Shown one piece after another: positions 10,221 to 21,882 of a DNA stretch of 40,338 nt (its first letter is position 1; the number at the start of each line of letters is the position of its first letter). A program made the position numbers and the translations under genes. This stretch comes from Trebonia sp. (GTDB lineage Bacteria; Actinomycetota; Actinomycetes; Streptosporangiales; Streptosporangiaceae). Below the pieces are notes generated by a model that saw only the letters and a list, made by a program, of their open reading frames with translations, searched no databases and was not told the origin of the DNA. The stretch spans positions 1 to 40,338 of the forward strand of contig DATBBI010000502.1 in assembly GCA_036271115.1 (NCBI GenBank), read 5' to 3'.

Positions 10221-12524
10221 GTGACCGTCCTCGCGGCGCCGGCCCCGGTCCCGCTGCCGCCGTACATCCTGACGGGCCTGGTGCTCGGCCGCTCCATCGT
10301 GGTGGGCGTCGACACGGCGGGGGACGCCGACACGGCGCCGGATGCCCGGTTCCCGGCCGGGTCACAGCTGGCTTTCACGCCGAGCGTCGACACGCTGATC
10401 TTCACCGCGCAGCACGACACGGTCTACCTGGCGGCGGTCGGCGCGGTGATCGACGGCGGCGGCAACCCGGTGACCCCGGACGGCGATCCGCTGTACCTGG
10501 TGGCGAACACCGGGCAGCCGGGCACCGACCAGGCGTGGTGGTGGACGTGCAAGCCGACGATCGAGGGGGCGACGCGCACCGCGTTCCGCGTCGACGTCCC
10601 GGCGGGCGGCACGGTGTACCTGACCGACCAGCAGCCCATTCCGTCGACCCCGGCGGGCGCCACGGTGGTGCGCGGCCCGCAGGGCGACCCTGGCGTGAAC
10701 ACGCCGCCGCCGGGCACGCCGGACGGCGCGGTCGCAACGTCGGCGGGCGGCCTGGTGAGCTGGGCGGGCGGCGCGGGCGGCGTGCAGAGCGCGGTGTCGG
10801 CGATGGCGGCGCGCTCGGCGGGCTTCATCGCCAGCCAGGCGGGGCCGCTGGCGGTGCCCACCTCGGCGTCGTGGCTGCGGCCCGATAGCGACTGGCAGGC
10901 GTCCTACACCGGGCCGGTGGCCGGCGCTTACGCGCTGGTGCTGGGCACAGACGAGCCGTCGGCGCCGTGCCCGGTGACGGTGGCCAACCCGGTCGGGGCG
11001 CTGCCCGACTCGTTCCGGGGCACGGTGTTCGGCGGCCTGGCGATCGCGCCGCGCGCCGGGCTCGTCGTGCAGGCGTACAAGCTGACCGACGTGTTCTACC
11101 CGTTCATCGCGCCGCAGCCGGTGGACGCCGGGACGGGCACGTGGGCGGTTGACCTGTCGTCGGTGGCGCCCGACCAGGCGGGTCAGTGGTTCTTCGGCCT
11201 GCTGGACACCGCGAACGGCAATGCGCAGGTGGGCGAGAAGTGGCCGAGCGCGGCGGCGTTCGCCGACGTCGCGGCCGAGCATTACGTGGTGACCGATGCG
11301 GTCTACCCGGTGTCGTCGCAGACCGCGACGGCGGCCGGGCGGTTCTCGTTCACGCACTCGCTGGCGGGGCGCAAGGGCTACCGGCTGACGCGCCGCTCGA
11401 CCGGGGCGGTGCTGGCCGACGCGCCGCCGCTGTCCGGCGCGGTCCGCTCCTACCTGGTGGCGCCGGGGGAGCCTGGGTTCGGGTCGAATTTCGTCACCCA
11501 GTCCTACGCCTACGACCAGGCGCTGTGCCTGTTCGCGGCGATCGCCCGCGGCGACCGCGCGCAGGCCGGCCAGCTGGTGGCCGGGCTGCTGCGGTTCCAG
11601 ACGGCGGGCGGGGCGTCGGACGGCGGGTTCATCTTCTCGGGCCAGCAGCTCGCGCCGTCGCTCGGCGACCCCGCCTACCGCACCGGGTCGCACGCGATCT
11701 GCACCGACGCGCTGCTGGCCTACATCGGCGCGTTCTGCTCGGCCGAGTTCGCCGGGCAGGCCCCGGTGTACGCGCGCCGTTCGGTGCTGGCGGCGGCGGC
11801 GGGCCGCGCGCTGGCCTACCTGGGCACGATGATGTCGGCGGCGGGCACCACGGCGGGCCTGTACCTGGGCGGGACCGGCGTCTACGACTCGACCAGCGGC
11901 GGCCAGTTCGACCCGGCGCAAGACCTGACGTGGGCGTCGACCGAGCACAACCTGGACGCGTGGCACTGCCTGACGCGGGCCGCGCAGGTCCTCGGCGGCA
12001 CCTGGCAGCAGCAGGCGGACACGCTGGCGGCGGCGATCCACGGCACGCTGTGGGACGCGGTGAACGGCCGCTACTACCAGGGCATGAAAGACACCGGGCC
12101 GGACACCGCCGACCCGCTGGACTGCCACACGTGGGCGGCGATCATGGCGGCGCAGAGCGGCCACCCGGACCGTGCCGTGGCGATCACCGCCCCGGCGGTG
12201 CTGGCGCCCTACCGGCACGTGATGCACGGCGGGGCCGGGTACGCGCCGATCCGGCCGGCCGACCCGCAGTATCCCGGCTCGGTGCCGACGATCTGGGCCG
12301 AGGGCACCATGGCGGCGGCGCTGGCGTTCCTCGCCGTCGGCGACCAGGCCCGGTGGTACTCCACGATCACCGACATGCTGGCGATCCAGGCGCCGGACGG
12401 GTCGTTCCCCTACGTGACCGACACCTCGCCGTCCTACGACTGGACGCCGAGCAAGGCCGTGGTCGGCTGCGCGTGGTCGGTGCTGGCCGCTGCGGGCGGC
12501 GGCATCTGGGGCGTGGCGCCCTAG
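10221..12524 (+). CDS. minor-tail-type protein with C-terminal six-hairpin (alpha/alpha)6 glycosidase-like domain
   Basis: Actinophage minor-tail-like N-terminus ending in GPQGDPG; C-terminal YDQAL, STEHNLD, PLDCHTW, WAEGT and QAPDGSFPY motifs. Confidence 0.7.
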   Translation: MTVLAAPAPVPLPPYILTGLVLGRSIVVGVDTAGDADTAPDARFPAGSQLAFTPSVDTLIFTAQHDTVYLAAVGAVIDGGGNPVTPDGDPLYLVANTGQPGTDQAWWWTCKPTIEGATRTAFRVDVPAGGTVYLTDQQPIPSTPAGATVVRGPQGDPGVNTPPPGTPDGAVATSAGGLVSWAGGAGGVQSAVSAMAARSAGFIASQAGPLAVPTSASWLRPDSDWQASYTGPVAGAYALVLGTDEPSAPCPVTVANPVGALPDSFRGTVFGGLAIAPRAGLVVQAYKLTDVFYPFIAPQPVDAGTGTWAVDLSSVAPDQAGQWFFGLLDTANGNAQVGEKWPSAAAFADVAAEHYVVTDAVYPVSSQTATAAGRFSFTHSLAGRKGYRLTRRSTGAVLADAPPLSGAVRSYLVAPGEPGFGSNFVTQSYAYDQALCLFAAIARGDRAQAGQLVAGLLRFQTAGGASDGGFIFSGQQLAPSLGDPAYRTGSHAICTDALLAYIGAFCSAEFAGQAPVYARRSVLAAAAGRALAYLGTMMSAAGTTAGLYLGGTGVYDSTSGGQFDPAQDLTWASTEHNLDAWHCLTRAAQVLGGTWQQQADTLAAAIHGTLWDAVNGRYYQGMKDTGPDTADPLDCHTWAAIMAAQSGHPDRAVAITAPAVLAPYRHVMHGGAGYAPIRPADPQYPGSVPTIWAEGTMAAALAFLAVGDQARWYSTITDMLAIQAPDGSFPYVTDTSPSYDWTPSKAVVGCAWSVLAAAGGGIWGVAP

Positions 12525-12787
12525 CGGTCGGGCTTCGACGCCTCGTCCATCAGCGCGGACATGTGCCCCACGGTCATCCCGTCGTCGGCGAGCCGCTGGG
12601 CGCGCTCCTCGCCGAGCAGGTCGGCCAGGGCTTGCTCGACCAGGCCGTTGGAGAGCATCGTCATGATGGTGATGGGCCAGGACTGGACCGGCGGCAGCAC
12701 GTAGCCGAGGCCCCGGAAAGTGAACGTGAACGGGGCGCCGGGCTTGGCGGCGCCGTCGAGCTGGAACGGCTCGGCGGGCTCGCTCAT
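12521..12787 (-). CDS. orphan tail assembly chaperone paralog
   Basis: PFTFTFRGLGYVLP....WP aligns with PFRFTYKGVIYELP....WP of 27314..27676; ATGA-coupled to the upstream gene. Confidence 0.75.
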   Translation of the reverse strand: MSEPAEPFQLDGAAKPGAPFTFTFRGLGYVLPPVQSWPITIMTMLSNGLVEQALADLLGEERAQRLADDGMTVGHMSALMDEASKPDR

Positions 12788-13116
12788 GTCAGCCGCCCCC
12801 GGAACTGGCGCCACGTCTCCTGGCCTTCGGGGGACCGCGCCCATTCGTCGCCCTCGGCGCTGCTGGCGTCATGCTCGCCGTCCGCGACCGACTGGGCGAC
12901 GAGCAGCAGCGCCACGGCGTTGTCCGGGTCGCGCTTGGCGGCGCGGCGCAGCTCGGTGATGAGCGACAGCTCGGGCATGGCCAGCGGCGAGAGGTAGTCG
13001 TGGTAGTAGCCGCGTTCGGCGCGGCGCACGATGGAGCGCGGCGCCCCGGCGGCCTCCAGTGCGGCGGCCAGGACGCGGGCGGTGTGGCCCTCGGGGAGGG
13101 GCTCGTTTGCGATCAT
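12784..13116 (-). CDS. hypothetical phage protein
   Basis: AGGAG RBS; GYYHDYLSPLAMPE...DGEHDAS..E.DEWARSPEGQ. Confidence 0.75.
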   Translation of the reverse strand: MIANEPLPEGHTARVLAAALEAAGAPRSIVRRAERGYYHDYLSPLAMPELSLITELRRAAKRDPDNAVALLLVAQSVADGEHDASSAEGDEWARSPEGQETWRQFRGRLT

Positions 13117-13130
13117 CTCCGGTTCTCCTG

Positions 13131-13490
13131 TCACTGCATCCACGGCCAGACCTTGACCTGGCTCGGCTCGACCATTCCGGCCCGGTCGGTGCCGAACCGG
13201 AGGCAGGCGGCTGCCTCGGGCGCGTCGGGGTCCCAGATCTCGACTAGCCACACGCGGCCGGCCCGGTCGGCGTCCTCAGCGATCGCCTGGTGGCGCACGC
13301 CGATCTCCTCGACCAGCTCGGGCGAGCCGACCCATTCCTCGGCGGCGATCTTCCCGGCGACGTAGACCCGCATGCGGAGCTGGGCGCGGGTGAAGGCGTG
13401 GCAGTTGCCGCAGTAGCCGTTAGCGGCGTCGTCGGGGTGGTGGCTGGTGCGCTGGCACCGGGGGCAGGTGAACGGCGGCGCTGGTGGCAT
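13131..13490 (-). CDS. Zn-ribbon protein (CPRC...YCGNCH)
   Basis: Two CxxC motifs; probably leaderless, with GACACT 6 nt before the ATG. Confidence 0.7.
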   Translation of the reverse strand: MPPAPPFTCPRCQRTSHHPDDAANGYCGNCHAFTRAQLRMRVYVAGKIAAEEWVGSPELVEEIGVRHQAIAEDADRAGRVWLVEIWDPDAPEAAACLRFGTDRAGMVEPSQVKVWPWMQ

Positions 13491-13634
13491 GCTCCCAGTG
13501 TCGCCCCGCGGCCAGTAGGATTGCGACTGGTGGTGCGAATCGGGTAACCCTTTCGTGTCCGGGGCGCGGCGCGCGTGGTGGCAAGCCGCGCCCCACTCTT
13601 GCCGCTGGCGGCGGGCGCGGGGCACACTGGCGCC

Positions 13635-13949
13635 ATGCCGACCCGCGCGCCGAGCTCGTGCCGTCCGGGCTGCCCGTACCCGCGTCGGGGCTGCCCGGTT
13701 CACCCGCCCGCGCGCTGGGCCGAGGGGGCGCGCGGCCGCCGGATGCCGCCCGGTTGGCCAGCGACAAGAGCGCGCGTGCTGCACCGCGACGGGTACCGCT
13801 GCCGCCGCTGCGGGTCGCTGGCCAACGAGGTGCACCATGTCGAGCCGGGCAACGAGGACGAGGCCATGATGGTGTCGCTGTGCCCGGACTGCCACCTGGC
13901 GGTCACCCTGGCGCAGGCCGCGGCAGCGCGGGCACTGGCGCGTCCGTGA
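13635..13949 (+). CDS. HNH endonuclease (packaging-associated)
   Basis: W...RARVLHRDGYRCRRCG..ANEVHHV...SLCPDCH; upstream of the terminase genes. Confidence 0.85.
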   Translation: MPTRAPSSCRPGCPYPRRGCPVHPPARWAEGARGRRMPPGWPATRARVLHRDGYRCRRCGSLANEVHHVEPGNEDEAMMVSLCPDCHLAVTLAQAAAARALARP

Positions 13950-14539
13950 CCGCGCCCGCCGTCACGCCGCTCGGGCCGGTCACCGTCATGCCGCTGGCGA
14001 ACCTACGGCCGTACCCGAAGAACGCGCGCCGGATCAACGCCAAGGCCGTCGACCAGACCGCCAAGTCGATCAAGGCGTTCGGCTGGCAGCAGCCCATCGT
14101 CGCCGACCCGGACCTGGTGATCATCGCCGGGCACGTGCGCTGGCAGGCGGCCCGGCAGCTGTCCGAAACGGAGGTGCCGGTGGTGGTGGCGGCGAACCTG
14201 ACGCCCGAGCAGGTCAAGGCGTTCCGCATCGCGGACAACCGCACGCACGATTACACGATGTGGGACTACGCGCTGCTAGCGGCCGAGCTGGACGGCATCG
14301 GCGCCGAGTTCGAGGGGGTGCTGGACCTGGCCGACTGGCAGGAGATCATCGACGGCTACGCGGCCAGCCCGCCCGAAGGAGAGCCGCTGGATGACGACCC
14401 GGAGACGGCCGCGCTGCTGGGCGCCGGGTTCACCCTGACGCTGGTGTTCGCCAGCCGCCGGGAGGCCGAGGAGGCCGGGCCGGTCGTGCTGGCGAAGATT
14501 CCGGGGGTGCTCAATGTCCGCTACGGTCACAAGCACTGA
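13946..14539 (+). CDS. ParB/Srx-like nuclease domain protein
   Basis: LRPYPKNAR...SIKAFGWQQPIV..D.VIIAGHVRWQAA...AFRIADNR. Confidence 0.9.
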   Translation: MTAPAVTPLGPVTVMPLANLRPYPKNARRINAKAVDQTAKSIKAFGWQQPIVADPDLVIIAGHVRWQAARQLSETEVPVVVAANLTPEQVKAFRIADNRTHDYTMWDYALLAAELDGIGAEFEGVLDLADWQEIIDGYAASPPEGEPLDDDPETAALLGAGFTLTLVFASRREAEEAGPVVLAKIPGVLNVRYGHKH

Positions 14540-15530
14540 GGCCCTGGCGGGCATCCTGCCGTGCGTCGTCTCCGGCGGCCGGCCGAGCCTGGACGAGCGG
14601 CGCACCGCCCGGTGGCTCTCGGCCCTGCACGGCGTCACCGCCGACCCGGTATGGGTCGTGCGCGACGACGAGGCGGGGGCGTACGAGGACGACGGGCACG
14701 AGATCGCCGCCTACCCGCGCGCCTGGGCCGAGACCTGGGCGCGCGAGCACTGGACCGACGTCAAGCCGTACGAGGAGGGCGGGTTCCTCGGCGCGTTCCC
14801 CGGCCGGGAATGGGCCGCCCGGCTCGCCGAGCAGCGCGGCTACTGGGCCGTGCTCCAGCTGGACGACAACATCGTCCAGTTCTACGTGTCCACCGCCTAC
14901 GGGGTCGCGGCCCGCACCATGCACGAGCTGGGCGGCCTGGGGATGTACGCCGACATCATCGCCGCCGTGGCCCTGTCGACCAACGCGGCGATGTGCGGCG
15001 CCAACCTGGCGTCGGTCAACCCCGGCGGCGCCCGCATGGTCTTCGCCCGGCGCGGCTTCCCGTACTCGCTTTTCCTCGAGCGGACCGGCCCGCGCCGGAT
15101 GCCGTGGCACGGGCCGAGCGAAGACGACATCATCCAGGCGATCCAGTACGGCGCCAGCGCCGCGCCGGTCACCGCCGGGCTGATCCTGCCGCTGCGCTAC
15201 CAGAAGGACAACACCCGCTACGACGGCGGGCTGCGCCGCTGGTATGACGACAAGCGCAGCGTCGGCCTCCAGCGGATGCACCCGGAGGCGGCCAGGCTGG
15301 TGGTGCGCCGGGCGCGGTCCAACGGGCGCGGCGACCCGCGCGTGTTCCACGCGATGAGCCCCGACGCGATCCGCACGCCGCTCGTCGTGCTCGACCGGGT
15401 GCTGTTCAGCGCGGCCCGCGACAAGACCCTTGACGTCGCGCGGGCCACCGCCGCCGCCGTGCACGCCGACCTGCCCCGCCGCGTCGCCGAGCACGCCAAC
15501 AAGCACAAGGCGGCGCCGAATGGGGCGTAG
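14514..15530 (+). CDS. GT-A fold glycosyltransferase, GREB1/TAGT-like
   Basis: VVSGGRP, VVRDDEAGAY, G..REW, LQLDDNI, EDDI motifs; ParB neighbour. Confidence 0.65.
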   Translation: MSATVTSTEALAGILPCVVSGGRPSLDERRTARWLSALHGVTADPVWVVRDDEAGAYEDDGHEIAAYPRAWAETWAREHWTDVKPYEEGGFLGAFPGREWAARLAEQRGYWAVLQLDDNIVQFYVSTAYGVAARTMHELGGLGMYADIIAAVALSTNAAMCGANLASVNPGGARMVFARRGFPYSLFLERTGPRRMPWHGPSEDDIIQAIQYGASAAPVTAGLILPLRYQKDNTRYDGGLRRWYDDKRSVGLQRMHPEAARLVVRRARSNGRGDPRVFHAMSPDAIRTPLVVLDRVLFSAARDKTLDVARATAAAVHADLPRRVAEHANKHKAAPNGA

Positions 15531-15978
15531 AGGCCCCCAGCCGGTGCCGACCAACCTGCGGCTGCTGCGCGGCGAGTCCCGGCCGTCGCGGATCAACCGC
15601 CAGGAGCCCAAGCCGCGGGAACTGCTGCCCGAGCCCCCGGACTGGCTGAGCGCCTCCGCCGCCGAGGAATGGGCGCGGCTGGTGCCCGACCTGATCGTGA
15701 TGGGCACCGTCAAGGCGGCCGACGCCACGGCGCTGGCGTGCTACTGCGAGGCGGTCGCCCGGTTCCGCGTGGCGACCGAGATCGTCAGCCGGGCCGGGCT
15801 GATGCTGAAGGACCGCGACGGCATCGTGCGGAAGAACCCGGCGGTCGGCATGGCCCGCGACGCCGGGGCCGAGGTGCGCCAGTGGGCGCGCGAGTTCGGC
15901 CTGACCCCGGCCGCCCGCCAGCCGCTCCGCGTGGAGCACTCGACCGCGCCGGGCAGCGCCGAGCGCCTGCTGTCCTAG
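15520..15978 (+). CDS. terS: terminase small subunit, P27 family
   Basis: MGRRGPQPVPTNLRLLRG...PPDWLS..A.EEW...KNPAV...EFGLTPAAR. Confidence 0.92.
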   Translation: MGRRGPQPVPTNLRLLRGESRPSRINRQEPKPRELLPEPPDWLSASAAEEWARLVPDLIVMGTVKAADATALACYCEAVARFRVATEIVSRAGLMLKDRDGIVRKNPAVGMARDAGAEVRQWAREFGLTPAARQPLRVEHSTAPGSAERLLS

Positions 15979-16056: not shown

Positions 16057-16468
16057 CGACCCGGCTTTTCGGGCAAAACCTGGCCGGCATTGCGCGCGGA
16101 CGGGGACCGCCCGCGCCACTTCCGCCGACGAGGGGGTACCCCCCCACGTCGTCGCACGTCGGCCCTCCCTGGCGCCGAGGGCTGTCGGGGGTGTCCGTGC
16201 GGGTGCCTCGGCGCGGACGGCTCACGGGCTCGGCCACAGCTGGCGCCTAGTCGGCCGGGCACCATGGCCGTGATGTGACCATGCTCACCTCGCGTGAACG
16301 GGCACGCATCGCCGATCGCCTTGCCCGCAGTCGTTCGGTCACCGTGTGACATCACTCACCGTGCCCGTTACGAAAAAAGGTGCGGAAAAGCGGTCCAACC
16401 AGCGAAAACGCGACATAGTCTTATGGCGTAAGCACGGCACGGACACGGAACACGGGAGACACGGACAC

Positions 16469-16903
16469 ATGGCACGCACCACCACCACCACGCGTAAGAG
16501 CACGGCCGCCACCACCACCACCACACGTAAGGGGAACGCCACCATGGCCACCACCACCGCACGTAAGAGCACCACCACCACCGCGCGTAAGGGCACGGAA
16601 GTGGCCACGCGTAAGAGCACGGCCGCCGCGCCGGCCGCGCCTACGTCCTACCGTGGCGTGGCCGTGGCCGGCTACACGGTGCGGTGGCCCCATGGTGGCT
16701 ATGACCTCCTTAAGACCACGGACGCCACGGCGGAGCGTGCCGCGTGGCTAGTGCGGTGTAATGACCACGGCACCGTGGGCACCGTGGAGAACACGCGTGC
16801 CGGAGATGCGGCCGGTAGCCGCGCCGGCCGCGCCACGTGGTGCCCGGCATGTAAGCGCACGGCCGCCGCCGCCGCGCGTAGCGCCGCACGGCGCGCGGCG
16901 TAG
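16469..16903 (+). CDS. Thr/Arg/Lys-rich protein with C-terminal Zn-binding domain (WPHGGYDLL, CxxH...CxxC); alternative start at 16544
   Basis: About 39/69 identical to the C-terminus of 18751..19407; the GGGGAACGCCAYCATG leader at 16544 is shared with the next gene. Confidence 0.8.
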   Translation: MARTTTTTRKSTAATTTTTRKGNATMATTTARKSTTTTARKGTEVATRKSTAAAPAAPTSYRGVAVAGYTVRWPHGGYDLLKTTDATAERAAWLVRCNDHGTVGTVENTRAGDAAGSRAGRATWCPACKRTAAAAARSAARRAA

Positions 16904-16936
16904 GGCCGGGGCACGGTAGGGGAGGGGAACGCCATC

Positions 16937-17263
16937 ATGACTACGCCTAGCGGCCCGTGCGTGCGGTGTGAGGCATGCGCGGGGGGTAACCCGTGCGTGC
17001 ACACCGTGAGTGGTGGCGCCATCCCGTTCCGGGAAGTGGTGCGGGAAGTGCGGGAAGCGCTCACCCGTGCGGGCATCACCCGGCCGGGGATGAGTGAGCC
17101 GGCCGCCGCCCGCCTAGCGGCGGCGGCCGTGCGGGAGATGCCGGAGGAGCTGGAGCTGGCGGTAGATGACTACCGCCGCGCGGTCCGCACGCTCACCGTG
17201 GCCACGGAGGTACTTAACTCACTCTCCGCCATGGGCGCGGACATGACCGGTCTAGTGCCGTGA
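16937..17263 (+). CDS. hypothetical protein with N-terminal Cys cluster
   Basis: GGAGG RBS; CVRCEAC...CVH. Confidence 0.7.
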   Translation: MTTPSGPCVRCEACAGGNPCVHTVSGGAIPFREVVREVREALTRAGITRPGMSEPAAARLAAAAVREMPEELELAVDDYRRAVRTLTVATEVLNSLSAMGADMTGLVP

Positions 17264-17349
17264 AAGCGCGCGTCCTAGCCCTCATAGACCGTGCCCTAGT
17301 GGCGCTAACCGGAGGTGAGCTAGAGATCCCGCCGGATCTAGCCCGCTAG
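17260..17349 (+). CDS. 29-aa peptide MKARVLALIDRALVALTGGELEIPPDLAR (not in ORF track)
   Basis: GTGA overlap; ends just before a hairpin. Confidence 0.5.
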   Translation: MKARVLALIDRALVALTGGELEIPPDLAR

Positions 17350-17365
17350 CCCGCACCACCACCTA

Positions 17366-17396
17366 ATGCCCCGGCCGCACCACGCGGCCGGGGCAT
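17366..17396 (+). terminator. GC-rich hairpin terminator
   Basis: ATGCCCCGGCCGC-ACCAC-GCGGCCGGGGCAT perfect 13-bp stem. Confidence 0.6.
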
Positions 17397-17869
17397 AGTG
17401 CTGTCCGGGGCACACGCGTGCCCGGCCGCCGCCGCCGGAGGTGATGCCCGGCCGCCGCGTGCCCCGGCCGCCGGAGGTGATGCCCCGGCCGCCGCCGCGT
17501 GCCCGGCCGCCGTGCCCCGGCCGCCGCCGTGCGGCCATACCGCCTTAGTGACGTGCCCGCGCGCGACTGTGGGTGCCCCCGTAGGCGGTCGCGCCGGGCG
17601 CCCGGCGGTATTCACCCGCGCGGCCCCCCGCGACCGGCTACGGTGCGTTCCGCAGCCGTACAGCGCGTGACCTAGCTCACACGACCGGGTGTTCTAAATC
17701 GGGGATGAACCAGCGGCGCCGAAAGCGTTTCACGGATGTTCCATCCGTCTCATCCGCCTCACCGGAGGTCACCGGGCACCATGTCCGCCCACCCCCCGCC
17801 CGCGCACTGGCGCGGGCCGTCCCTGGCGCCCCGGCCGCACTCGCGGCCGGGGCGCTGCCGATTGCTGGC

Positions 17870-18045
17870 GAGCTGCCGAGCTGCCGAGCTACAAAGCTGC
17901 CGAGCTACAAAGCTGCCAGGCTCGTGGCCCTCCTTTCGGGCCTGGCCCTCCTTTGGCGCCGGGCTGCCGAGCTGCGAAGCTGCCGAGCTGCCGAGCTGCA
18001 ACCCCCCCCAGGTCATGGCCCTCCTTTCGGCCGTGGCCCTCCTTC
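17870..18045. repeat. two blocks of tandem 8-mers (RAGCTRCM), each followed by two TGGCCCTCCTTY motifs
   Basis: 8-mers at 17870-17917 and 17961-18000; 12-mers at 17925, 17943, 18016 and 18034. Confidence 0.85.
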
Positions 18046-18082
18046 CCGCGCGGACCCTCCGCACCGACGAAAGGCACGACCG

Positions 18083-18289
18083 ATGACACCCGAAGCCGAG
18101 GCGTTCGCCTCCAACCTGCTGGCCTACAACCTGACCCTGGCGGCCCGCGTGGCGCGCGGGCACGGGATCACGGCGGAGGAGGTGGCCGCCGTGCTCCGCT
18201 CCCTGGCCGACGCGATCGAGACGGGCGACTGCGCCGAGTCGATGTACCCGGTGTCCGACGGCAGCACCCTCGTGGAGCTGATCCCGTGA
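18083..18289 (+). CDS. hypothetical protein
   Basis: GAAAGG RBS; typical codon use. Confidence 0.65.
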   Translation: MTPEAEAFASNLLAYNLTLAARVARGHGITAEEVAAVLRSLADAIETGDCAESMYPVSDGSTLVELIP

Positions 18290-18663
18290 CGCTCCGGGAC
18301 GAGAGCTATGACGCGGCCGTGCGCGCGCTGGCGGCGGAGCCCGTGGTGCGGGAGATGGCGGCGTCGCTGCTGAACCCCGACGCCGAGCTGCTGGAGCCCG
18401 ACGGCACGCCGACCTACGCGTTCATGATGAACGCGCGTGGTGAGTATGAATTCCGCACGGGGCACGCGGCGGCCGGGCACATAGGCGCGGTGGCGGAGGC
18501 GCTGATGCTGATCCGCGACGAGGAGCGCTACGGGCCGAGCCATGACTGCCCGAAGGAGGCGTTCCTGGCCGACCCGATCACCTCGGCTTACGGTGTCGGG
18601 AGCGAGATGGTCGGCTCGATTAGGTGCGCGGTGTGCGACGCCGAGGAAGAGGGCCGCGCGTGA
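18286..18663 (+). CDS. hypothetical protein
   Basis: GTGA overlap; C-terminal HxC...CxxC. Confidence 0.65.
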   Translation: MTLRDESYDAAVRALAAEPVVREMAASLLNPDAELLEPDGTPTYAFMMNARGEYEFRTGHAAAGHIGAVAEALMLIRDEERYGPSHDCPKEAFLADPITSAYGVGSEMVGSIRCAVCDAEEEGRA

Positions 18664-18750
18664 CGCCTTACCGTCCGGGCGCGCGCGCGCCGCCGCGCTG
18701 GCGGGCACGTGACGCGAACCGAGTAACCGACCGGGAAGGAACCCGAGATC

Positions 18751-19407
18751 ATGACCGAGAACACCACCACCACCGAGGCCGAGACCGCGACCGCCGAGAC
18801 GGCCGCGCCAGAGGCGCCCACCGACCTGGACGCGGCGCGCGCGGCGCGGCGGCCCTCATCCCGTGAGCGCGCCCGCGCTGACTCGGCCGCCAAGCAGGCC
18901 GCGGCGAGCGGCGCCAGCGCCAAGCCCGCGCCCACGGCCGCCGCACTGGCCAAGGAGGCGGCGGCCAAGGTCTCGGCGGCGATCGGCGAGGAGCCGCACA
19001 CCGCTACCCTCCGCACGCGGTTCGAGGCGCTGGGCGTCGGCAAGCGGAAGGCGGCGGTCAAGGCGGCGCGGCTGGCGCTGGAGGGCGGGGCCACGCGCGC
19101 GGCCGCATGGAACGCGGCCATGGATGAGGTCGCGCCGAAGGAGGCCGCCGCGCCGAAGGCCCCGGCCAAGCCGAAGGCCGAGCAGAAGTTCCGGGGCGTG
19201 GCCATCCCCGGCTACGTGCTGAAGTGGCCGCACGGCGGCTACGACCTGCTGGCGACGACGGACAAGTCGGCCGACCGGCCGGTGTGGCTGGTGCGGTGTA
19301 ACGCGCACGGGACGACGAAGCCGATCAAGGCGGCCAAGGAGGGTGACGTGCTCGGCACTAACGCGGGGCGGCCCGCGTGGTGCGCCAAGTGCAAGGCCGA
19401 GGCGTAG
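18751..19407 (+). CDS. Ala/Lys-rich protein with C-terminal Zn-binding WPHGGYDLL domain
   Basis: GAAGGA RBS; paralog of 16469..16903; hairpin follows at ~19428-19455. Confidence 0.85.
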   Translation: MTENTTTTEAETATAETAAPEAPTDLDAARAARRPSSRERARADSAAKQAAASGASAKPAPTAAALAKEAAAKVSAAIGEEPHTATLRTRFEALGVGKRKAAVKAARLALEGGATRAAAWNAAMDEVAPKEAAAPKAPAKPKAEQKFRGVAIPGYVLKWPHGGYDLLATTDKSADRPVWLVRCNAHGTTKPIKAAKEGDVLGTNAGRPAWCAKCKAEA

Positions 19408-19486
19408 CCACCACCTACGCCGGGCACGGGGCCGCCCGCACGCGCGGGCGGCCCCGAGCCGATTCCACCACCGAAGGGAAACACTG

Positions 19487-19915: not shown

Positions 19916-20271
19916 CCGTCCGCTAGGCGCCAGCGGCGGGCGCGGTCCCATTCCGGGGCCGCGCCCGTCATGCTGTGCGGCTGCACGCGGCCCCGTGCGG
20001 GGCCGGGACGGGCCGGGCCGGGTGATTCTCCACGGCGGCCCGGACCGAGCCGCACGCGAGCGTTCACAGCCGCCCGCAGCGTGCCCCGGCCGCCGCGTGC
20101 CCTCCGCGCGGCCCGTAGGCGGCCGTAGGCGGCCGGAGCGGGGCCGGAGCGGGTGCGCGGCCGTGCGGGGCCGGGGATGGCCGGAGCGTGCCGCGCACAG
20201 CCGCCGCGCGGCACCGTGAGACGCCGGTTGACACGGTGAGACACCGCGACACAGCCGGTCATACTGGCCCC

Positions 20272-21882
20272 ATGGCTGACCGGCGCCGATTCCCGCCGTG
20301 CGGGCGGGTCTTCGACGGGCAGACCTGCCTCCGCCGGGGCGCGCACTACTGCGCGCCGCGCGCCGACCACGCGATGGCGTTCTTCACCGAGCTGCTCGTG
20401 CACACCAAAGGCGTGTGGGCCCGGCAGGCGTTCATCCCCGCGGCCTGGGAGGAAGCCGAGGTCATCCGGCCGCTGTTCGGCACCGTCTACTGGGAGCCGG
20501 GCTGGGGCATGTACGTGCGCCAGTACCGCGAGCTGTACCTGAGCACGGGTCGTAAAAACGGAAAGACCGAGCTGATCGCCGGGCTGTCGCTCTACTTCAC
20601 CATCGCCGACGGCGAGGAAGCCGCGGAAATGTACGGCCTAGCGCTCGACAAGGACCAGGCCGGCCTAGCGTTCGCCGCCGCCGCCCGCATGGTGGCGCTG
20701 TCACCGCCGCTGGCCCGCCGCCTGTCGGTGGCGCTCGGCGCCCGGCGCATCTACGACGAGCGCACCGCCTCGTTCTTCACCGTCGCGGCGGGCGACGCGC
20801 TCGGCGCGCTCGGCACCGCGCCGCAGGCCGCCTACATTGACGAGCTGCTCGCCCAGCCGTCCCGCGAGCTTTACGACGCGATCCGCACCGGGTTCGGCAC
20901 CCGCCCCCAGCCGGTGCTCATGCTGGTCACCACCGCCGACAGCGACCCCAGCGGGTTCGCCGCCTCGGAGCGAGCCTGGTCGGAGAAGGTGCTGGAAGAC
21001 CCGAGCCTGGACCCGGCCCGCCTGGTGGTGCTGCACGCCGCGCCCGCAGAGGCGGACTGGACGAAGGAGGAGACCTGGAAGCTGGCCAACCCGGCGCTCG
21101 GCGACTATCTCGACCCGCGCATCCTGGCCGATGAGTGCCGTAAGGCGCAGGCCAACCCGGCGGCGGAGCGGGCGTTCCGCCAGTTCCGGCTTAACCAGCA
21201 GTCACAGGAAGCGGGCCGCGCCATCGCGCTGGACGCGTGGGACCGCTGCGCGCCCGTGACGGAGGACCTGGCCGGCCGCGCCTGCTACGGCGGCCTGGAC
21301 CTCGGATCCACCATCGACCTGGCGTCCTACGCGCTGGACTTCCCCGGCGGCGGCGGCCACGACGTGCTCTACCGGGTGTTCGCGCCCGAGGCGGCGCTGC
21401 CCAAGCTGGACCGGCGCACGGGCGGCAAGGCGACCGCGTGGCGCGAGGCCGGGCTGCTGACCGTGACCGAGGGCGACGTCATCGACTACGAGGCGATCAA
21501 GGCGGCCATGCGCGAAGACGCCGAGCGCTACGAGATCCGCGAGATAGCGTTCGACCGCTGGGGCGCTACCCAGCTGTCGCTCGACCTGCTGGACGAGGGG
21601 TTCCCGCTGTTCCAGACTGGTCAGGGCTTCGCATCGATGTCCGGGCCGACTAAGGAGTTCCTGCGGCTGGTCGCGGCGGGCGCCTACCGGCACGGCGGCA
21701 ACCCGGTCGCGCGCTGGCAGGCGGCCAACCTGATCGTCCGCACCGACCCGAGCGGGAACCAGAAACCCGACCGGGCGCGAAGCGCCGACAAGATCGACTC
21801 GATGGTGGCTGGCATCATGGCTCTTGACCGGGCCATACGGCACGCTGAGCCGCAACGCGACTACGCGGCGGCCGGGTTCTGA
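20272..21882 (+). CDS. terL: terminase large subunit
   Basis: Walker A GRKNGKT, Walker B YIDELL, nuclease GLDLG, DRWGA, KIDSMVA. Confidence 0.97.
   Translation: MADRRRFPPCGRVFDGQTCLRRGAHYCAPRADHAMAFFTELLVHTKGVWARQAFIPAAWEEAEVIRPLFGTVYWEPGWGMYVRQYRELYLSTGRKNGKTELIAGLSLYFTIADGEEAAEMYGLALDKDQAGLAFAAAARMVALSPPLARRLSVALGARRIYDERTASFFTVAAGDALGALGTAPQAAYIDELLAQPSRELYDAIRTGFGTRPQPVLMLVTTADSDPSGFAASERAWSEKVLEDPSLDPARLVVLHAAPAEADWTKEETWKLANPALGDYLDPRILADECRKAQANPAAERAFRQFRLNQQSQEAGRAIALDAWDRCAPVTEDLAGRACYGGLDLGSTIDLASYALDFPGGGGHDVLYRVFAPEAALPKLDRRTGGKATAWREAGLLTVTEGDVIDYEAIKAAMREDAERYEIREIAFDRWGATQLSLDLLDEGFPLFQTGQGFASMSGPTKEFLRLVAAGAYRHGGNPVARWQAANLIVRTDPSGNQKPDRARSADKIDSMVAGIMALDRAIRHAEPQRDYAAAGF

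Follow-up and report, generated by a model that had tools for sequence, protein, structure and literature searches.

A gene for a predicted zinc-finger protein, purged of short DNA words, at a likely phage genome end

Why would a phage lose three short words, on both strands, from one gene for a small predicted zinc-finger protein and keep ordinary codons in a second gene of the same family? The question is raised by the window, the whole 40,338-nt stretch analysed here (contig DATBBI010000502.1 of the Trebonia sp. assembly GCA_036271115.1; genome G000, contig C502), and by two of its genes, called A and B below. The window takes in its contig entirely, and a terminal repeat of 141 bp marks it as a complete circular assembly. 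It encodes a serine integrase, RecET-like proteins, an HNH protein, a ParB N-terminal-domain (ParB-N) protein, a TET-associated glycosyltransferase (TAGT), the terminase small (terS) and large (terL) subunits, portal, capsid and tail proteins and an amidase, and it is a complete temperate siphophage of actinobacterial type. A GC content of about 72% and this gene content suggest an actinobacterial host. The window was binned with a 53%-complete genome, in the rest of which no matching attachment site was found, so the binned host is not established as that of the phage.

Two domain copies and one purged tract

16412..17560 (1,149 bp), both strands: tract almost without CGA/TCG, CAG/CTG and CAA/TTG and with GAC/GTC halved (word counts)
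16469..16903, plus strand: gene A, 144 aa; Thr-rich N-terminal tail with five RK[SG] units, zinc-finger copy A and a short Ala/Arg C-terminal tail
16649..16855, plus strand: predicted zinc-finger copy A, recoded (translation, codon test)
16937..17263, plus strand: recoded like gene A; 108 aa, without a Pfam or PHROG match and of no known family
17366..17396, plus strand: GC-rich hairpin, possible terminator (-32.5 kcal/mol for 17355-17402)
18751..19407, plus strand: gene B, 218 aa, with normal codons; its start is acidic, its linkers are Ala/Lys-rich, and it holds zinc-finger copy B and a conserved segment of 48 aa
19189..19395, plus strand: predicted zinc-finger copy B (translation, structure model)
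19423..19460, plus strand: GC-rich hairpin after gene B (folding)

The initial annotation described a 69-aa domain encoded twice, with about 39 identical residues and no gaps, and translation of both stretches bears this out: 39 of 69 positions are identical in a gapless alignment, at a nucleotide identity of 131/207. The codon differs at 21 of these 39 residues, and the individual codon pairs cited in that annotation are as it gave them. The recoding of copy A is real. When the protein was held fixed and codons were shuffled 2000 times with the phage's own codon usage, gene A was found to contain no CGA/TCG (19.4 expected), no CAG/CTG (7.1), no CAA/TTG (6.4) and five GAC/GTC (20.9), and none of the shuffles was as low for any of the four word pairs. 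Gene B is ordinary under the same test, its words being near expectation (30 against 33.2, 14 against 14.8 and 12 against 12.5). The gene at 16937-17263, which is likely to share a transcript with gene A, is purged too, with no CGA/TCG against 13.7 expected and two CAG/CTG against 9.1 in the same protein-preserving test. Neither a sigma-70 promoter nor a U-tail terminator was called.

Over the whole tract, which includes intergenic DNA and this second gene, CGA/TCG occurs 0 times (60 expected), CAG/CTG three times (45) and CAA/TTG 0 times (13.5), and CAC is enriched twofold. The longest gap without any of the six words is 739 bp in the window, against 138 bp across the other 501 contigs of G000. 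The sequence of the tract is identical in contigs of two sequencing runs, X1 and X2, with no other letters. The three avoided words consist of C followed by two purines, at least one of them A. Since the purge affects both strands, its agent likely acts on double-stranded DNA, and an RNase explanation was rejected.

The two proteins differ outside the domain. The initial annotation gave both a basic, low-complexity N-terminus, which suits the Thr-rich tail of gene A (11 K/R against 1 D/E). The N-terminus of gene B is only weakly basic (23 K/R against 18 D/E, the first 30 residues being acidic) and contains a 48-aa segment conserved in the family member P0005 (40% identity, E 3e-7); it is therefore not merely a histone-like tail. 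The long basic Lys/Ala repeat tail that is the main feature of histone H1-like and HC2 proteins is not found in gene B, and the HC2 profile matched one of 142 family members (E 0.005). Gln is absent from the gene A protein, whose start position is shared by its homologues P0151 and P0014.

The copies belong to different branches of the family. A quick tree of 71 rows (64 of 147 protein hits, five locus domains, one weak locus domain and both copies) and 70 columns, in which 36 of 68 forks are open, places copy A with P0002, P0014 and P0151 and copy B with P0001 and the protein of locus L003 (SH-aLRT support 95 and 96). The copies thus parted long ago and do not stem from a recent duplication. 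The pair had been proposed as an internal control for the recoding; the copies do differ in codons, but as members of different subclades they form an imperfect control. The suggestion that copy B is a second copy for later expression or packaging found no support: it comes from another subclade, 2.6 kb separate it from the end, within the same end-proximal cluster, and the majority of relatives are single-copy, with one copy at each related locus examined.

Several repeats and elements were observed around the tract. Directly after it, at 17862-18060, stand two 91-nt direct repeats, 78% alike, which are built of short GCTGCCGA and TGGCCCTCCT units and contain many of the avoided words. Before terL, at 19916-20271, CGA is low again, though less markedly (3 sites in 356 bp), and short direct repeats occur there. 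The gene at 18286-18663 matches phrog_2223 (unknown function, E 5.7e-13) and has a short stretch in common with the purged gene at 16937-17263. A GAAGGGAACCACC-type element, which resembles start-associated elements, precedes many genes of the end-proximal clusters (~18740 and ~19475 in the window, 9537-11700 in L021, ~920 and ~1790 in L018, ~2815 and ~3925 in L002).

The likely genome end beside gene A

15430..15978, plus strand: terS (PF05119); stops 122 bp short of the cos
16101..16109, minus strand: likely cos with a 9-nt 3' overhang (contig breaks); the minus-strand reading begins CGGT
16132..16146: G-run/C-run palindrome, 22 nt inside the end on the terL side, marking a terminus of the L5 right-end type
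20272..21882, plus strand: terL (PF03354, PF20441); 4.3 kb from terS, beyond the cos

The tract begins close to a probable genome end. In run X1, possibly the source run, position 16100 is the last of one contig and 16110 the first of the next; run X2, which belongs to another study, likewise has a contig with exactly 16110 as its first position, and no listed contig bridges 16101-16109. This evidence consists of assembled contigs, not raw reads, and records may be lost to a filter. According to a passage in PMC5557969, a 3'-overhang cos is expected to leave a short gap without coverage. Here such a gap lies between fixed ends in a phage with an HK97-type terminase and an HNH gene, and the contig breaks thus point to a likely 9-nt 3' cos at 16101-16109. 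A terS scan of viral contigs gave no match.

The polarity of this end is indicated by its motifs. The right ends of mycobacteriophage L5 (Z18946) and of the related genomes G151 and G152 have a G-run/C-run motif similar to the palindrome ~20 nt inward, and on the terS side the minus strand carries a GGTTT element common to the left ends of G151, G152 and G153. The cos would therefore be inverted relative to the terminase genes and placed between terS and terL, whose 4.3-kb spacing is filled with small genes including both zinc-finger genes, and gene A, 360 bp in, would be the first gene at a right-end-type terminus. L5 resembles the window further in its 9-nt 3' overhang and in its terminal (C)GGT, close to the CGGT start of the cos on the minus strand; the window differs in its inverted cos, and no such purge is seen in the last 2 kb of L5. 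A rearranged terS/terL orientation was also observed in G153 and G155.

Homologues of the gene in G151 and G152 lie within ~2.2 and ~4.6 kb of the right-type end. By the last-in-first-out rule, which is disputed, the right-type end would enter the host first. One in vitro study describes that either lambda end can leave first (PMC10287942). The initial annotation called copy A an immediate-early protected copy. Its position 360 bp from the likely end agrees with this, as does the recurrence of the purge in loci L018 and L021 described below; early entry and early expression of gene A are what we infer for the rest of this role.

Protection of leading regions is itself already known. T7 gene 0.3 (Ocr), the first-step-transfer DNA of T5 and the murciaviruses (PMC12455610, in part) likewise combine a motif-poor unit near a fixed end with a small early gene, and gene A shares with leading-region anti-restriction genes its place at a fixed genome end (the break at 16100/16110). 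In those examples a 6-8-letter site is avoided, whereas three-letter words are purged here on both strands; the phage is a temperate siphophage with a likely cos, the purge goes with the gene, and the word changes between phages. The gene A protein is basic with a predicted zinc site, unlike Ocr, an acidic DNA mimic. The tract may work like a leading-region protected gene, with anti-defence as a candidate role.

Elsewhere in the genome, at 10221-13636, two genes stand remote from the tail operon, flanked by replication genes and HNH: one is tail-fibre-like (767 aa), the other, reversed, resembles a tail-assembly chaperone gene.

The domain family and the purge in its relatives

A search of 1.84 billion representatives (clusters at 50% identity) gave 156 hits at E<=0.001, 150 of them listed, and defined an unnamed domain family of ~150 such clusters with the pattern CxxH-x24-CxxC. 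Five long multi-stretch matches are repeat proteins; four of them were read and are unrelated. In the alignment of 149 rows, from which hits at least 450 aa long were excluded, H40 is conserved in 100%, C37, W64 and C65 in 99%, W33 in 97% and C68 in 85%, the last position being otherwise His or Asp, and the spacer between the ligand pairs is 24 residues in 131 of 149 rows. N-termini vary across the family and are net positive in 104 of 148. The AlphaFold2 model of the domain has four strands and two helices (confidence score, pLDDT, 96.9), and the domain is predicted to be a zinc finger.

The initial annotation did not recognise the family, and library, fold and profile searches gave no match to a characterised unrelated family either. 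Neither gene A nor gene B matched Pfam, NCBIfam or PADLOC, and their PHROG matches were only weak (best phrog_208, E 0.02). The domain had no tblastn match in 50,697 phage records, Foldseek returned nothing at E<=0.001 from the pdb and viral sets, and sequence searches of the PDB gave nothing credible. Against 400 genomes of the phylum and 100 related genomes, the profile found only three weak partial matches, with stop codons. Short chance-level matches in L023, the sole locus from the genome contigs, and in L017 were discarded. No nuclease domain was seen in the family members scanned. The profile of the His-Me finger beta4-alpha2 repeat (PF18275) matched P0096 alone, below the cut-off, over the last 20 residues (E 8e-4), and had no match to the window domains at E<=10.

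DNA binding by the domain is plausible and, on balance, somewhat favoured. The domain is basic, four members (P0006, P0049, P0071 and P0091) have weak N-terminal winged-helix matches, all below cut-off, and the model bears a weak likeness to AP2, arm-type integrase and WGR domains, in which a sheet is packed on a helix. Whole-domain structure alignments gave Z 3.5 for 6sy0 (root-mean-square deviation 4.3, 55 residues aligned) and Z 3.1 for 3jtz (3.4, 55 aligned); the AP2, arm-type and WGR scores of Z 2.9-3.5 are on a par with unrelated folds such as MmoD (6d7k, Z 4.2), and the predicted zinc site sets the present domain apart from these three. In a subfamily formed by P0033, P0128, P0138 and P0144, the zinc finger is N-terminal and fused to a common C-terminal domain of ~100 aa. 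Fused forms are known from the 1.84-billion-representative search alone.

The purge was sought at 14 domain loci, some of them near-copies, with a 600-bp window at log10 p <= -6. Three passed, namely the window, L018 and L021, each on the homologous gene; among controls, 0 of 32 terL loci and 3 of 80 TAGT loci passed, one of the latter being L021's own record. In L018, CGA occurs twice against 36.5 expected (z -7.2) and CAG is avoided too; the purge spans the gene and the DNA just after it, and the gene is of another subclade than copy A. In L021, CA/TG is depleted (16 against 51.3, z -7.6) and CGA is abundant. For comparison, 88 chunks of other genes reach a lowest z of -5.2, with a fifth percentile of -4.0; CGA alone in gene A has z -5.2, with two further words at zero. 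Weaker depletions in L002, L003, L006, L014, L016 and L022 (z -3.5 to -5.3, mostly of CC, GGA or GA) fall within this background tail, L005, L011 and L015 show no depletion on these words, and none of the loci examined is depleted throughout. The purge follows the gene, not the end: the 302 bp at 16110-16411, between the end and the tract, hold 26 sites of the avoided words, and the 3.9 kb between gene and end in L021 mostly keep their CA words.

Five loci carry a promoter pattern of the extracytoplasmic-function (ECF) sigma type, which we take to be GGAAY-N17/18-GTT, 74-101 nt upstream of the homologous gene (L002 ~2740, L003 ~2594, L005 ~9663, L018 ~829, L021 ~9441). In L011 it stands at -36, and neither window copy has one.

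Self-modification, restriction and the remaining explanations

13871..14539, plus strand: ParB-N protein, start uncertain (PF02195, E 1.2e-6; phrog_620); candidate partner of a DNA-modifying enzyme
14514..15530, plus strand: TAGT family protein (PF20691, E 1.1e-13, above cut-off); candidate virion-DNA modifier

It is rather probable that the early unit was purged under selection, whether by the phage's own DNA modification or by host restriction. The favoured reading, to which a probability of roughly one in three is given, is that the gene A unit is immediate-early and is kept free of the marks that the phage's own ParB-N/TAGT enzymes put on virion DNA. These enzymes would place bulky marks at the three words, and the marks would hinder the host RNA polymerase, so that the gene A unit, lacking the words, could be read first on infection. 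Its basic protein would then bind the incoming chromosome, either shielding it or helping to switch on the remaining genes. Copy B, unpurged and of another subclade, would be transcribed at a later stage, from replicated DNA still free of marks. Zinc binding, DNA binding, the TAGT modification and its site are all presumed in this proposal.

Several observations are consistent with self-modification. Words that are short, vary between phages and follow a transcription unit fit the phage's own modification, and one enzyme with a short site would fit words made of C and two purines with at least one A. TAGT is present in six domain-bearing lineages (the window, L002/L003/L009, G151, G152, G154 and G158), and TAGT and the domain are both missing from all three terL relatives tested (G153, G155 and G159; 89, 70 and 40% complete); the TAGT profile test left out L014, L015 and L016. 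The candidate cassette of the window resembles the dioxygenase, ParB and glycosyltransferase cassettes described in PMC13229309 and bioRxiv 10.1101/2023.12.21.572611, in which ParB-N and TAGT likewise stand beside the terminase. According to the former, phage T-dioxygenases co-occur with glycosyltransferases, ParB and terminases and prefer NTC/NTG; in the avoided words, too, T stands before C or G, and they resemble these contexts. The Dpd site CxGCxG (PMC10164549, in part) was considered as the avoided site and does not fit.

A number of points weigh against this reading. The window differs from the dioxygenase cassettes in having no Tet_JBP (PF12851) match, none being found at E<=1 in G000, G151, G152, G153 or G154, although many phage dioxygenases escape this profile, as a passage in PMC13229309 indicates. 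There is also no methyltransferase among the genes scanned; the TAGT here is thus without a known primed base, which weakens the self-modification reading. The domain occurs at 1 of 80 TAGT loci, L021's own record, and 79 lack it; 2 of these 79 have a tract at log10 p <= -6. Only 3 of the 14 domain loci pass the bar, and L005 has adjoining ParB-N and TAGT genes yet no purge. TAGT was not found in G156 (L018) or G157 (L022), both 4.3-kb fragments. No fold match at Z>=5 was obtained for the domain among 48,161 chains. The glucosylated DNA of T4 is read by the host polymerase. A literature search on avoidance of this kind returned nothing either way, and one on TAGT with ParB and phage returned nothing. 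The single-sequence structure model of the TAGT was unusable (pLDDT 33.5). Two lower-GC TAGT loci without the domain were observed to be CGA-poor (L144 1-600, 7 against 35; L127 8451-9050, 17 against 50).

Close to self-modification stands escape from host restriction, a tentative explanation in which adenine-methylation systems (types I, IIG, III and BREX) or a short-site host system would have driven the purge, and the first-entering unit would make an anti-defence or DNA-shielding protein like T7 gene 0.3. The position of gene A by an end of the L5 right type, near which the G151 and G152 homologues also lie, suits it; a cut upstream of the promoter would spare gene A, and no TET gene is needed. 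Every avoided word contains A, like adenine-methylation half-sites. In the murciaviruses, sites in the first-injected region decide sensitivity to type I systems, according to part of PMC12455610. Known recognition sites, however, are longer than two or three letters, and a common pool of host enzymes would predict neither the twofold enrichment of CAC nor the avoidance of CA in L021 with its abundant CGA. The lack of PADLOC and NCBIfam matches for genes A and B also counts against restriction escape, as does the freedom of either lambda end to leave first in vitro. We know of no staged entry in lambda-like phages.

The tract might instead be an imported cassette, its donor avoiding these words genome-wide, and the purge would then have no function here. 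The subclade difference between the copies would agree, and so would the absence of Gln, both of whose codons are avoided words, from all three copy-A relatives at least 100 aa long, compared with 12 of 141 family members. This origin is nevertheless unlikely, since the L018 gene, though of another subclade, and the DNA that directly follows it are purged of CGA/CAG, and depletion throughout was seen at no locus examined.

Also improbable is that the gene A protein is a sequence-specific regulator, CapR- or AP2-like, acting on GTGA-N6-TCAC boxes, with the missing words as partial repressor sites. All three boxes in the genome that resemble what we take to be the CRP consensus flank the tract:

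16274..16289, plus strand: CRP-like box 1 (consensus match)
16345..16360, plus strand: CRP-like box 2 (consensus match)
17666..17681, plus strand: CRP-like box 3 (consensus match), just past the tract's downstream end

With one mismatch allowed, three matches in 40 kb compare with 0.36 expected, and 1 of 100 shuffles reached three. Upstream of 12 homologues, TGTGA/TCACA occurs 10 times against 1.8 expected, in a comparison of non-coding DNA with a mostly coding background. The domain shares with CapR/DUF723/DUF4379 (PF21817, PF05265, PF14311; PMC8096241, in part) two ligand pairs among predicted strands, its 24-residue spacer matching CapR's 24-26, and differs in its His as second ligand and its terminal WCxxC. 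The Atlas search placed CapR/DUF723 clusters nearest (0.92, 169 shared features, recognition 2194 against a bar of 2300); with full gene A all scores were under 0.8. PF21817 and PF05265 matched none of the window proteins and none of 142 members at E<=0.1 among the 25 families shown, and hhalign against the ICP1 CapR domains gave non-significant probabilities of 0.4% and 1.6%. Kinship with CapR is inconclusive, and the domain is not filed in that family. A repressor would moreover leave the near-total loss of three-letter words unexplained.

A by-product of a Thr/Ala/Arg-rich protein, or chance, might account for the six weaker depletions within the background tail, but is hardly credible for the tract, whose counts no protein-preserving shuffle reached and which takes in intergenic DNA and a second gene, and is already refuted for the window, L018 and L021.

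The locus is richer than first described: it combines a zinc-finger family that is undescribed, a purged copy next to a likely inverted cos, and relatives in which different words are purged. Phages commonly carry ParB-N/TAGT cassettes, one query having matched ~600 stretches, and the locus addresses both their role without a TET partner and the first transcription of heavily modified virion DNA. It lends itself to a direct test: the three words are known, a single genome holds both a purged and an unpurged member of the family, and relatives avoid other words. Should host restriction turn out to be the cause, these phages of uncultured soil bacteria would carry an undescribed early anti-defence zinc-finger family, and their hosts would have very short recognition sites. 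Alternatively, with a probability little below that of the favoured reading, these soil phages may glycosylate virion DNA by a TET-independent ParB-N/TAGT route and leave one stretch bare of the enzyme's short sites, from which a zinc-finger starter protein could be made although the DNA is otherwise unreadable; the words missing from each phage (CGA/CAG/CAA, CGA/CAG and CA) would then spell the specificity of each enzyme.

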